From: a virus
Virus record (IMG/VR): IMGVR_UViG_3300036791_001907
Coordinates: 97,482-161,481 of that record
Direction: 5' to 3' (one strand)
Length of the DNA stretch: 64,000 bases
Position 1 is the stretch's first letter; each line of letters opens with the position of its first letter. The notes beneath the pieces were generated by a model. That model worked only from the letters and a program-made list of their open reading frames with translations. It was not told the DNA's origin and did not search any database. Positions 7,128 to 13,970 of the stretch are shown piece by piece. The position numbers and the translations under genes are program-made.

Positions 7128-7424
7128 ATGGCTTCCACCATTTTCGATTCGCTATGGGACGAGGCCTTCGATCGCGAAGGCGAGCTTGTCTGTCACGCGG
7201 CTGAGCTGGCGCAGCTCTACAAGATCTCGAGCGCCATGGAGTCGATCCGGCTGGCCCAGCTGTTCCAGGCGTCGGGTCAGCCGTTCTTCGAGCACTGCGA
7301 AGCCATCGTACGGGCGCGGCAGGAGCGCAAACTGAAGCGTGTCAGGCGGCGCTATCATCTGGACGAGCAGCAGATGACGCTGCTCCGGCAACTGCTCGCC
7401 AAGGCGACGAAAGGATGGCAATGA
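7128..7424 (+). CDS. hypothetical protein
   Basis: AAGGAG RBS before ATG 7128; coupled to next gene. Confidence 0.6.
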   Translation: MASTIFDSLWDEAFDREGELVCHAAELAQLYKISSAMESIRLAQLFQASGQPFFEHCEAIVRARQERKLKRVRRRYHLDEQQMTLLRQLLAKATKGWQ

Positions 7425-8542
7425 CCAACATGAATTCTGAGTCTCCATCAATTGTTTTCACGGCGGACCTCCACTTTGATGAGACCGGCGCCTGGAAGCA
7501 CCGGGGGATCACGGGCGATGCCTGTGACTCATTTGCGCAGATCGTCGACTTCTGCTGCGCACACCAGGCGGGCGTCCTGGCCCTGGGCGGCGACATCGTG
7601 GACCGGCCGAGCACGAAGCAAAGGACGGTCAAGTTTCTCTGCGACCAGATCGACCTCCTTCAGGGGGCCGGAGTCCAGGTCATCTACATCCTCGGCCAGC
7701 ATGACGGTCGCGAGGAATGGCCGTCGCTCCATCCCAATGCGATCCACCTTCACGGCAGGGCCTATGACGTGGATGAGTTCACGATCTGCGGGCTCGATCA
7801 TTACCGCCGGCCTGGTGAGTTCCTGGCGGCGTACGCCGCCCTTCAGGTCCCGCCCGGATCGTTCCTGCTCTGCCATCAGGGATGGCGCGAGCTGATGGGC
7901 GGCAAGGAGGAGCTGATGCTGGCCGATCTGCCGTTTGCGCTCGACCTGCTGTGCGGCGACTACCACGACCACTGCACCCGGCATTACAAGGCCCGAGATG
8001 GGTCGCATGGTATCCTCCTGTCGCCCGGCTCGACGCACGCCCGGGACGTGACGGAGGAGAATGGCAAGCAGTTTTTCGCCATCTACCGCGGCACCGCGAC
8101 CCCGTATGCCTACCGTTCGATCAGTCTGCGGACCCGGCCGGTGCAGCGCTACTGGATCAGGACCGTGGCGGAGGCTGATGCATTTCTGGCCCGGCAGGAC
8201 CTGCCCCTGGACGGCACGGGCCTGGAACGCGCCGTGATCGATGTCTCCTTCTACAGCGACATCGACGGCTTTGCCGCGCAGCTCGAGCGCGCGCTGGCGA
8301 CGCGGTGTCACCTGTTCCTGAAGCCACGGGACCGCCGCCGCGAGGAGCGGACTCCGTCAGCCGTGGCCCGGCGAACCATTGCCGATCGCGGTCTGGCGGG
8401 CGCCGTCGACCTGGTGTGTGAACCCGGTCCGGTGCGGGACTCGGCGAAGCGGCTGCTCGAGGCGATCGATGCCGGTGCCGAGCTGGCGGTCATGAGAAAG
8501 GAATTCTACGACTCGACGGATAGCGGATCGCGAGGAGGTTGA
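7415..8542 (+). CDS. sbcD: Mre11/SbcD-like metallophosphoesterase nuclease (T4 gp47-like)
   Basis: ADLH, GDIVD, GQHD, CHQ, GDYH, SPGS phosphoesterase motifs; directly upstream of Rad50-like ATPase. Confidence 0.9.
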   Translation: MAMTNMNSESPSIVFTADLHFDETGAWKHRGITGDACDSFAQIVDFCCAHQAGVLALGGDIVDRPSTKQRTVKFLCDQIDLLQGAGVQVIYILGQHDGREEWPSLHPNAIHLHGRAYDVDEFTICGLDHYRRPGEFLAAYAALQVPPGSFLLCHQGWRELMGGKEELMLADLPFALDLLCGDYHDHCTRHYKARDGSHGILLSPGSTHARDVTEENGKQFFAIYRGTATPYAYRSISLRTRPVQRYWIRTVAEADAFLARQDLPLDGTGLERAVIDVSFYSDIDGFAAQLERALATRCHLFLKPRDRRREERTPSAVARRTIADRGLAGAVDLVCEPGPVRDSAKRLLEAIDAGAELAVMRKEFYDSTDSGSRGG

Positions 8543-12425: not shown

Positions 12426-12428
12426 GCG

Positions 12429-13970
12429 ATGACGACCCAGTCATCCCGGGCATTGCTGGTCCGCAATGGCAATGCACTTTACCTGGCCAGCCAGCTCGAT
12501 GTTCCGCTGCCTGCTGCGGTCTACGCGACCCTGACCCAGCACATGCAGTACCGCCACGTCACGCGGCTCTACGGCCGCGAGGCGTACGGCAAGACCCCCG
12601 GACAGCGGATCCGGGCTGAGCACCGCAGGCTCTTCAGCGTCGATACGCATGGTTGCCTGAATTTCCCGGCTGGCTACTACGACCGGGTCATGGTGCTTCT
12701 GGCCGGCATGGGCTATGACGTCCGCTACGTCGACGACTCGCCCCGGTTCCCCCAGCAGCTGGAGTGGGACTGGAACAACCTGGAGGCATTCCAGTTCCGG
12801 CCCAAGCAGGAAGAGGCCCTGCGGCTGATCGAGACGGCCTACAAGGCCCGCCGCGGCGGGGTGATCGATGCGGCCGCCGGCTTCGGGAAGACTGAACTTT
12901 TTGCTGCTATCGGGATGCTGCTGCCCACCGCCCGGATCTTGATCTGCGTGAAGTCGACGGACAACGTGCAGAAGACGATCCGGATCCTGCTCAAGTACCT
13001 GCCCAAGCAGACTGTGGGTCAGCGCGGCGCCGGCCGGAGCAAGCAGGCGCGCATTACCGTGGCCACGGCGGCGTCTGTCGGCAACTATCAGGGTCCGGTG
13101 GACCTGTTCCTGGGCGATGAAGGGCATGAGCTCCTGGCCGAGACCTATGTCTCGGACATTGTCACGGTGACTCCCCAGGCGATCCGCTACAGTTTCACGG
13201 CCACCGTCGAGGGCCGGTCCGACAACTCCGACGCCCGCATGGAAGCCGTCTTCGGCAGAACCCTGTTCCAGCTCACCTACCCTGAAGCGGTTGCGCTGAA
13301 GTTGGTGGTACCCATCGAGGTCCGCTGGAAGCGGGTCATCATGGACCGGAACCCGGCGGCCGGGTTCGAGGGCGACACGGCGCGGAAGCGGCACGGGCTC
13401 TGGACCAACGTGTTCCGCAACCACGACGTCGCGGCCACGGCATGGAAGCATTACGAACAGGACGATCAGGTCCTGGTCCTGGTCGACAAGATCGAGCATC
13501 TCTTGCATCTGGCCCGGCTGCTGCCCGACTTCGCGCTCTGCTACGGCAACATCGACGATGGCGACGAAGCCTACTACCGCAAACACGGGCTGCTGCCGCC
13601 GGGTTACAAGCCGCTGACGGTCGCGCGCCGCAAGCAGCTCCGCGAGGACTTCGAGAACGGCAAGATCCGCGGCGCCATTGCCACCGGCGTCTGGCGCCTG
13701 GGCGTGTCGTTCGATGCGCTGGCGGTGCTGATCTGGGCCGGCAGCGGATCATCCCCGATCGACGCCACTCAGGGCCCCTCGCGGGTCTCGCGGATCCATG
13801 GCGAGTCGGGCAAGGAATACGGCATCGTTTATGACTTCAATGACGAGTTCGATGACCAGTTCCACAAGCAGGCCATGGCGCGGCGCCGCGTCTACAAGAA
13901 GCACGACTGGGCGCAGGTTGAGCCCCCCGGCGCCTTCGCGCAGGGCATCGCCCGGATGTTCTTTAGTTGA
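12429..13970 (+). CDS. superfamily 2 DNA helicase (UvsW-like)
   Basis: FRPKQ Q-motif, AAAGFGKT, DEGH, FTAT, ATGVWRLGVS, QGPSRVSR. Confidence 0.9.
   Translation: MTTQSSRALLVRNGNALYLASQLDVPLPAAVYATLTQHMQYRHVTRLYGREAYGKTPGQRIRAEHRRLFSVDTHGCLNFPAGYYDRVMVLLAGMGYDVRYVDDSPRFPQQLEWDWNNLEAFQFRPKQEEALRLIETAYKARRGGVIDAAAGFGKTELFAAIGMLLPTARILICVKSTDNVQKTIRILLKYLPKQTVGQRGAGRSKQARITVATAASVGNYQGPVDLFLGDEGHELLAETYVSDIVTVTPQAIRYSFTATVEGRSDNSDARMEAVFGRTLFQLTYPEAVALKLVVPIEVRWKRVIMDRNPAAGFEGDTARKRHGLWTNVFRNHDVAATAWKHYEQDDQVLVLVDKIEHLLHLARLLPDFALCYGNIDDGDEAYYRKHGLLPPGYKPLTVARRKQLREDFENGKIRGAIATGVWRLGVSFDALAVLIWAGSGSSPIDATQGPSRVSRIHGESGKEYGIVYDFNDEFDDQFHKQAMARRRVYKKHDWAQVEPPGAFAQGIARMFFS

Follow-up and report, generated by a model that had tools for sequence, protein, structure and literature searches.

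Predicted TasR-like and Vipr-like proteins encoded side by side in the replication core of large uncultured phages

Two adjacent genes in the replication and recombination block of a clade of large uncultured phages (150-246 kb), here called A and B, code for a predicted nuclease-dead TasR-like protein and for a minimal RAMP protein that best fits the Vipr family. The reading we prefer, at a probability of about one half, is that the two are neighbouring, vertically inherited core genes, B being a Vipr-type protein that would use arrays of five-base repeats and A a TasR-like protein devoid of nuclease activity. The use of the arrays by B, like joint action of A and B of any kind, is something that we infer. 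The initial annotation had presented the locus as an undescribed module, which can no longer be maintained: TIGR-Tas (2025) and VIPR (2026) describe both kinds of protein, and an arrayless branch of viral TasR is on record.

The window, i.e., the whole stretch of 64,000 nucleotides analysed, carries the locus on its plus strand. The gene for an Mre11-like phosphoesterase (7415..8542; Pfam Metallophos, E 1e-6; syntenic in related loci) is followed by that for a Rad50/SbcC-like ATPase (8543..10675; SMC_N, AAA_23, phrog_77 at E 3e-25). Gene A (10707..11738; AF2 model and VIA structure match, 67 homologues), a 17-bp palindrome with a 7-bp hairpin (11744..11760), gene B (11785..12327; AF2, Foldseek, VIA and hhalign) and a structured leader of 101 nt (12328..12428; folding and comparison of relatives) come next, and an SF2 helicase gene (12429..13970; ResIII E 1.5e-12, phrog_16 E 1e-38) is syntenic in all loci. 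This layout agrees with the initial annotation, the coordinates of which were exact or within a few bases. Its "UvsW-like" label of the helicase found no confirmation, a phmmer search of PDB sequences having returned no match. The Rfam search of the window gave no hit.

The order Mre11-Rad50-A-B-helicase-...-DnaB-primase-PolA is identical in all 12 IMG/VR loci compared, which represent 11 lineages with GC percentages from 47 to 65%. A and B are therefore core genes inherited vertically, and their proposed location inside the replication/recombination core is borne out. Since the whole block is syntenic, position alone assigns no function. The context of the homologues comes from IMG/VR and metagenome scans only; a tblastn search of 50,697 GenBank phages matched neither A nor B, and single-protein scans with P0047, P0067, P0064 and P0173 gave no result. 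Among the loci, B shares 34-44% identity, Rad50 29-32% and DnaB 26-34%; conservation of B above that of Rad50 and DnaB is unusual for a conflict gene. Complex prediction for A and B gave scores of 0.45, 0.00 and 0.08, with the median below the mark, and adjacency of the two genes alone does not show that their products bind each other.

Gene A starts with ATG downstream of GGAGGAG, has homologues of approximately 340 amino acids and is present in a single copy in the genome. Its AF2 model (pLDDT 91.7), together with the VIA matches, displays a RuvC-like N-domain, a short helical hairpin and a Nop-like C-domain. Residues 10-336, spanning both domains, match the TIGR-TasR chain 9mty_B (VIA Z 10.4, 238 residues, rmsd 5.7), the Nop part (residues 133-335) matches TasH (Z 8.3, 142 residues), and the N-domain matches RuvX/YqgF/RuvC at Z 6-7. 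The IS110 family is also recovered (Z 6.2 over 236 residues; Foldseek prob 0.7-0.9), and the IS110/Nop-like fold foreseen in the initial annotation is thus substantiated in a TasR-like form. The likeness to TasR and Nop is at the fold level only: no Pfam or PHROG match was obtained, nor a PDB sequence match at E up to 10, PF01548, PF02371 and PF01798 matched none of 42 gene A family members at E up to 5, and no sequence-level link to Tas, IS110 or Nop profiles was found. The ESM Atlas search gave scores of 0.84 or lower. A NurA-like reading found no NurA chain among the 50 VIA matches listed.

Among the homologues, none of the Asp or Glu positions in residues 1-115 is invariant or nearly so. 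The acidic residues of the RuvC site are thus missing, as anticipated from the suggestion that A is nuclease-dead, and modelling and residue conservation point to a nuclease-dead TasR-like protein with RuvC-like and Nop domains. Comparison of secondary structures places helices of 14 residues each (125-138 and 143-156) where TaTasR has approximately 30 and 27. Judged by its published description only, the "arrayless, no coiled-coil" viral branch of TasR probably includes A; the accessible part of the Science 2025 supplement does not hold contig ids of the relatives. We infer that binding of DNA or RNA, with no cleavage, is the most likely activity of A.

Gene B starts with GTG downstream of GGGAGGA, and its homologues have 180 amino acids. 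The AF2 model (pLDDT 85.5), in which the C-terminal tail is disordered from residue 159 on, depicts a minimal RAMP of the Csm3/Cmr4/Cas7 type with a single RRM. Foldseek placed it with Cas7-11, Csm3 and type VII Cas7 (E 8e-6 to 2e-4, prob 1.0), and all 27 chains at VIA Z >= 8 (11.8-8.0) are CRISPR RAMPs, aligned over 130-158 of the approximately 158 ordered residues; the RAMP/Cas7-type fold ascribed to B earlier is hereby corroborated. A BFVD match to a phage "RAMP superfamily protein" (E 1.7e-7) is in line with this. Identity to the Cas7 subtypes is 8-15% throughout, none being closer. The family comprises 249 clusters, all of 145-220 amino acids, and B stands alone both in its family and in the genome; a scan of genome contigs for a relative of gene B retrieved none. 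In 63 family sequences, G132, G136 and G146 of the G-loop are invariant or nearly so, in the glycine-rich motif G-x-x-x-G-I-S-P-x(5-6)-G-x-F.

The Foldseek copy of the PDB is older than the Vipr structures (entry 36pp among them). In the PDB sequence search, the Vipr protein of Escherichia phage SUSP1 was the sole match of gene B (E 0.047), and hhalign aligned the B profile with it at 71% (E 3.7e-5) over 36 residues of the G-loop only. These 36 residues sit at a motif common to all RAMPs. Y140-K141 of B are aligned with W178-R179 of Vipr, the residues by which G2 and Y3 of the repeat are read (10.64898/2026.04.26.720920, 10.64898/2026.04.26.720927), and B seems, from compared secondary structures, to be without the alpha-bundle of SUSP1 Vipr. 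The Vipr family, which was described in 2026, is the one that accommodates B best.

VIPR systems consist of a Vipr RAMP, a vrRNA and a Vap, that of SUSP1 being type II (10.64898/2026.04.26.720920, 10.64898/2026.04.26.720927, 10.64898/2026.10.15.759431). The vrRNA is made up of tandem GGYNN (or NNNGG/YNNNG/NNNNG) pentamers and a conserved tail, and the vipr genes described are flanked by their own vrRNAs (10.64898/2026.04.26.720920, 10.64898/2026.04.26.720927). The caveat in the initial annotation that any guide may lie elsewhere proved pertinent, as the genome repeat scan found a large array of the VIPR kind approximately 42 kb upstream of B. Outside the window, at 61.3-67.8 kb of this genome (G000), approximately 4.8 kb of G-[G/C/U]-Y-N-N pentamer tracts include 44 runs of at least 8 period-5 G units in 6.5 kb, vs. 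11 in the other 152 kb. The unit logo is G / G.41 C.36 T.19 / C.51 T.28 / N / N, the coding (period-3) signal is lost in the region, and 11 hairpin elements show compensatory stem changes. A distant relative (G002) has approximately 55 regular 93-nt units of GC-Y-N-N pentamers. The arrays surfaced only with a relaxed NNNNG scan; strict YNNGG of at least 5 units occurs nowhere in the genome or the loci. Period-6 signals in another relative, G003, were rejected as arrays, being acidic coding repeats.

In the window, as in each of the 12 loci, the surroundings of B are free of period-5 tracts to a distance of approximately 9 kb. Period-5 arrays are also absent from G001, from G003 and from the closest relative, G007; each of the three carries B and is rated 100% complete, so that the conserved role of B needs no large array. 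Near the array of this genome there is no second B-like gene, and its array neighbourhood has no protein in common with that of G002. Targets sought under a 1-nt-skip rule in G000, G001, G003 and the loci were no better than those of shuffled guides, and the sequencing-run search matched no RNA run and only one soil DNA run, possibly that of the sample of origin. In agreement with the earlier statement for the window, TRF, k-mer and repeat scans revealed no CRISPR or TIGR array there, in 161 kb of the genome or in the loci, TIGR arrays being hard to detect.

If the preferred reading holds, then by analogy with the VIPR of SUSP1 one B protomer would bind each five-base repeat of a long RNA, sequestering the G-(G/C/U)-Y bases and exposing the NN dinucleotides. 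The filament of B and RNA might then bind double-stranded DNA without cutting and silence it. The likely source of the RNA would be the pentamer tracts of this genome, not the adjoining spacer. On the opposing side, the arrays are at least 42 kb from B, and their second position is relaxed compared to GGY.

A possible, if rather unlikely, alternative is that A and B are guide-independent parts of replication and recombination, old RNA-guided folds having been exapted as nucleic-acid binders: B may coat single strands or act as a mediator, A may bind branched DNA or ends with Mre11-Rad50, and the arrays would be an unrelated accessory. In its favour are the fixed position in 12/12 loci, the identity of B above that of Rad50 and DnaB, the retention of B in the array-free G001, G003 and G007, the tight placing of A behind Rad50, and the lack of a recognised SSB or mediator among the scanned neighbours. 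In most lineages a sigma-70-like promoter lies in the gap between A and B and a strong terminator follows B, which suggests high expression. The RAMP fold, however, is not known in any SSB or mediator, the RNA-reading G-loop residues of Vipr are conserved in kind in B, pentamer arrays, so far known from VIPR only, occur in two divergent members of the clade, and the synteny extends over the entire block and thus assigns no function. Less probable still is a domesticated essential replisome module, in which a TasR-like A and a Vipr-like B from separate RNA-guided lineages would be brought together. B filaments on repeat RNAs would then open DNA to R-loop triplexes at origins or breaks, and A would either stand in for the helical "small subunit" missing from B or couple the complex to Mre11-Rad50 and the helicase, with the multi-kilobase pentamer arrays as an optional library of guides.

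The palindrome and the three-hairpin spacer reported in the initial annotation are present, the spacer being 101 nt long. A part as a guide did not hold up for either, as both are kept only in close relatives, intergenic DNA is almost lacking there in two lineages, and in most lineages a promoter lies in the A-B gap and a terminator behind B. The palindrome (CGTTACG-CTG-CGTAACG) has 97% of cells paired in five close relatives, where three pairs have become G-U by a one-sided change, one C-A mismatch occurs and compensatory changes are absent; distant lineages lack the palindrome. The spacer (folding z-score -2.46) is conserved in close relatives only. Its hairpin 1 (12329-12345) is not conserved and the stem of hairpin 2 (12372-12390) is invariant, while in hairpin 3 (12395-12427), which has one compensatory pair, CCCC pairs with the Shine-Dalgarno GGGG of the helicase gene. 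The spacer is the leader of the helicase gene, with its last hairpin covering the ribosome-binding site, and is not a guide. The motif CACATGCCA in the spacer was rejected as a repeated promoter, being unique in the genome. There is no conserved local RNA at A and B.

It is accordingly very improbable that A and B form one complex guided by the adjacent spacer or palindrome for R-loop formation or origin priming for the helicase. Adjacency in all lineages, two folds that are both guide-binding scaffolds, and the palindrome and two spacer hairpins kept in close relatives would suit such a complex, but conservation ends at the close clade, the two gaps of L015 measure 2 nt and 9 nt, L024 is without a gap between B and the helicase gene, and the A-B gap of L018 is 517 nt. 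Furthermore, a promoter and a terminator occupy the gaps in most cases, occlusion of the ribosome-binding site accounts for hairpin 3, and the spacer has no pentamer repeats or tigRNA-like architecture. Cas-derived inhibitors are known from phages, and the Cas7-like fold and the early-type promoter ahead of B would be in keeping with a Cas7 decoy (anti-CRISPR) that poisons the assembly of class 1 effectors of the host or soaks up crRNA, A being unrelated, but this is the least probable reading of all, with B a core gene in phages that span 47-65% GC and so probably infect very different hosts, no nearer to one Cas7 subtype than to another (8-15% identity), and with pentamer arrays in two genomes.

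If B works as a Vipr, the effectors of VIPR can be core genes unlinked to arrays, the guide libraries that they serve can be very large (approximately 50 units or several kilobases), and G-(G/C/U)-Y is tolerated by the repeat code. Each of these points would broaden the targets of VIPR annotation. The role of the arrayless TasR branch is a question posed in the 2026 TIGR preprint (10.64898/2026.09.09.750476). Should A belong to this branch, its place between Rad50 and a RAMP would be the first contextual clue to the role. Two guide-binding scaffolds kept adjacent in a replication block also bear on ideas of a viral origin for CRISPR RAMPs.

Among the known systems, the IS110 recombinases (IS621, 8wt6; ISCro4, 9t56) resemble A in combining a RuvC-like domain with an RNA-binding helical domain, but A lacks DEDD residues, a Ser-recombinase Tnp match and IS ends, and it is single-copy and syntenic across lineages. 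Type III/IV/VII Cas7 proteins (Csm3, Cmr4, Csf2, Cas7-11 domains) share with B the RRM core, the first-helix RNA-binding surface and the glycine-rich loop (Z 9-12). In contrast to them, B is much smaller, its catalytic loop is devoid of a conserved Asp, it has no Cas5, Cas10 or Cas11 partner and no CRISPR array, and its candidate RNA repeats are of five bases, not six.

The TasR of TIGR-Tas systems (PDB 9mty; Faure et al. 2025, PMC12045711), of which nuclease-dead and "arrayless compact" branches are noted (10.64898/2026.09.09.750476), differs from A in that A has no sequence-level match to Tas, IS110 or Nop profiles and occupies a fixed place after Rad50 and ahead of a RAMP gene, an arrangement not reported for Tas. 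Similarly to TasR, A places a Nop domain after a RuvC-like fold in approximately 330-345 amino acids, and it lacks the RuvC carboxylates, as do PateTasR and CsTasR. In the model its helical hairpin is short where TasR has a long coiled coil, which resembles the "no coiled-coil" branch, and with the arrayless branch it shares a viral genome and no detectable TIGR array.

Unlike in VIPR, the arrays here are at least 42 kb away instead of flanking and are missing from three complete relatives, their second position is G/C/U in this genome or C in G002 where VIPR has G, and the tracts of this genome are hundreds of bases long compared to 9-16 units. B seems to have no alpha-bundle, belongs to the core genes of a replication block and shares sequence likeness over 36 residues only, and its neighbour is TasR-like and outside the described Vap classes (WH, HTH, HNH, helicase). 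As in VIPR, on the other hand, B is a phage-encoded, stand-alone, minimal RAMP of approximately 150-200 amino acids with a G-loop, there are no cas genes or CRISPR array and one accessory-type gene adjoins it, and the genome has five-base repeats with G first, a pyrimidine third and two variable positions, the tracts being separated by conserved structured segments.

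The five genes that the initial annotation placed in one block, coding for an Mre11-like phosphoesterase (7415-8542), Rad50/SbcC (8543-10675), the products of genes A (10707-11738) and B (11785-12327) and an SF2 helicase (12429-13970), are all present at these coordinates on the + strand, which carries nearly all the coding sequence of the window (GC approximately 65%). Neither A nor B has a match in Pfam or PHROG. Downstream of the SF2 helicase follow a 227-aa ORF, a DnaB-like helicase, a primase (phrog_47), a UDG-PolA fusion and a UvsX-like recombinase. In the fusion protein (17765-21415, 1216 aa) a uracil-DNA-glycosylase-family domain lies N-terminal to a family-A DNA polymerase with a 3'-5' exonuclease domain. 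The order Mre11-Rad50-A-B-helicase-ORF-DnaB-primase-PolA is identical in 12 IMG/VR loci, which represent 11 lineages with GC of 47-65% and contigs of up to 235 kb. Among distant lineages, identity is 34-44% for B, 29-36% for A, 29-32% for Rad50, 26-34% for DnaB and 23-29% for Mre11. The identical order together with these sequence identities argues that A and B are core genes, inherited vertically, and not a mobile cassette. As the entire block is syntenic, adjacency of A and B is not specific evidence for their joint action. Nor are the two always contiguous, since in one lineage an ORF-sized insert of 517 nt separates them (L018:8484-9000, in an excised related locus).

The proposal that A has an IS110/Nop-like fold proved correct at the fold level. 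The AlphaFold2 model, built on a 42-sequence alignment, has a pLDDT of 91.7, and Foldseek gave weak matches towards TIGR-TasR, IS621/ISCro4 and the YqgF domain of Spt6. In a Foldseek-independent structure search the top match was TIGR-TasR 9mty_B (Z 10.4, 238 residues, model residues 10-336), followed by TasH (Z 8.3), which covers only the Nop part (residues 133-335). RuvX, YqgF, RuvC and poxvirus resolvase aligned with residues 1-115 only (Z 6-7), and ISCro4 had Z 6.2 across 236 residues. The predicted architecture of A is thus that of TasR. Sequence-level searches did not connect A with Tas, IS110 or Nop, and the putative homology is one of fold. No Asp or Glu occurs among the invariant and near-invariant columns of residues 1-115, and therefore the RuvC-type metal site is not conserved, in line with the suggestion that A is nuclease-dead. 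TasR combines RuvC with Nop and is guided by tigRNA (TIGR-Tas, PMC12045711); dead-RuvC TasR proteins are RNA-guided repressors, and one divergent viral branch has a compact TasR that lacks the coiled coil, and no array could be detected for it, which was left there as an open question (September 2026 preprint, 10.64898/2026.09.09.750476). The model of A has two short helices at the expected coiled-coil position, and A may belong to this arrayless compact branch.

The RAMP/Cas7-like fold suggested for B was likewise recovered. The model (pLDDT 85.5, tail disordered from residue 159) has 120 PDB matches in Foldseek at E <= 1e-3, the best being Cas7-11, Csm3, type VII Cas7 and Cmr subunits (E ~1e-5, prob 1.0). 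VIA returned 27 chains at Z 11.8-8.0, all of them CRISPR RAMPs, with 130-158 of the approximately 158 ordered residues aligned. An exhaustive profile search gave a family of 249 clusters at 50% identity; the 150 members among the matches listed are all small and stand-alone, most of 145-220 aa, the shorter ones matching only part of the profile. The glycine-rich loop is kept in the family (G132, G136-I-S-P, G146-x-F), and H100-E101 and S-P-Y-K (residues 138-141) are nearly invariant. In Csm3 and Cmr4 the catalytic Asp is carried in a loop which we take to be equivalent to one in B, where the family has no conserved Asp.

Against PDB sequences the B-family profile had one weak match, the SUSP1 Vipr protein (E 0.047). 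In hhalign with the Vipr sequence from KT454805 the value was 71% (E 3.7e-5), with the match confined to last helix, G-loop and final strand. Here S-P-Y140-K141 of B stands opposite G-D177-W178-R179 of Vipr, the residues reading repeat bases G1, G2 and Y3 (10.64898/2026.04.26.720920, 10.64898/2026.04.26.720927); B retains the aromatic and the basic residue but not the Asp. VIPR systems are phage-encoded minimal RAMPs, known in seven types with six accessory (vap) gene classes. They assemble into filaments on ~100-nt RNAs in which GGYNN pentamers are joined to a structured tail, use a 1-nt-skip code to bind double-stranded DNA, and act as silencers of competing elements (10.64898/2026.04.26.720920, 10.64898/2026.04.26.720927). 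Both protein kinds are hence now described, and the initial annotation's term "undescribed" no longer applies to them. The TIGR and VIPR papers searched mention neither each other's protein nor a Rad50 context.

The short non-coding elements are present as proposed. The 17-bp palindrome between A and B (CGTTACG-CTG-CGTAACG, 11744-11760) has 97% of cells paired among five close relatives, in which three pairs are altered one-sidedly to G-U, with no compensatory change; such changes fit a +-strand RNA hairpin. The spacer between B and the helicase (101 nt) folds into three hairpins (z-score -2.46). In the close relatives hairpin 1 is not conserved and the stem of hairpin 2 is invariant; hairpin 3, with one compensatory pair, looks like translational control of the helicase. 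The idea that the spacer is a local guide is not supported, given that the helicase Shine-Dalgarno is paired within hairpin 3 and that neither spacer element nor palindrome was found in related loci outside the close clade. Across lineages the A-B gap is 2-517 nt and the B-helicase gap 0 to ~250 nt. Most A-B gaps contain a sigma-70-like promoter (e.g. TTGACA-17-TAGTAT) and a strong intrinsic terminator usually lies 3' of B, which thus is often a separate transcription unit. Between this terminator and the helicase start, several distant lineages have a conserved non-coding element of ~80 nt, GGTCA..hairpin..GATGATAGC..GGTCAAYAC (approximately L013:9490-9590, L016:9510-9612, L018:9610-9683, L020:9510-9616 and L022:9500-9595).

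The other location proposed for a guide was elsewhere in the genome. Strict YNNGG repeats are absent from the genome and the loci. A relaxed scan revealed a dense G-every-fifth-base region outside the window, ~42 kb upstream of B, in G000, the same genome with its upstream DNA (G000:61,331-62,624 and 64,373-67,836; L025:3332-4625 and 6374-9837 in the excised locus; window about -36,150 to -29,645). It holds ~4.8 kb of non-coding period-5 tracts on the + strand, with no period-3 coding signal in the tracts and a few small genes interspersed. There are 44 runs of >=8 period-5 units in this region vs 11 in the other 152 kb. The unit is G, then G (.41), C (.36) or T (.19), then C (.51) or T (.28), then N-N, i.e. 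G-[G/C/U]-Y-N-N. The tracts are interrupted 11 times by a hairpin element that has GGTATAT as its loop and compensatory changes at three stem pairs, and they are a candidate VIPR-type guide array. In G002, a distant B-bearing relative (195 kb, terminal repeats), a very regular 5.3-kb array (184,850-190,170) has ~55 units of ~93 nt, each opening with 33 conserved nt and continuing as 11-12 GC-Y-N-N pentamers. The two array neighbourhoods have no protein in common, and G000 has no second B-family member and no B-like ORF near the array. Isolated runs of 11-15 five-base units also occur away from arrays (G009:12,488-12,558, 15 units, in another relative; G000:85,371-85,478), and these may be solo vrRNAs, or solo guide RNAs.

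A guide-independent role of B in the replisome is a serious rival to guide binding. Three relatives rated 100% complete, including the closest one (G007, with G001 and G003), carry B, and in none of them did a strict, relaxed or Fourier test reveal a period-5 array; the conserved role of B is therefore independent of a large array. The arrays of G000 and G002 could also be served by some unrecognised partner. Compared with TIGR-Tas and VIPR, what is distinctive here is a conserved TasR-like neighbour of a Vipr-like RAMP inside the replication block of a giant phage, where this RAMP belongs to the core genes and lies apart from its candidate arrays, which are unusually large and have a relaxed repeat consensus.
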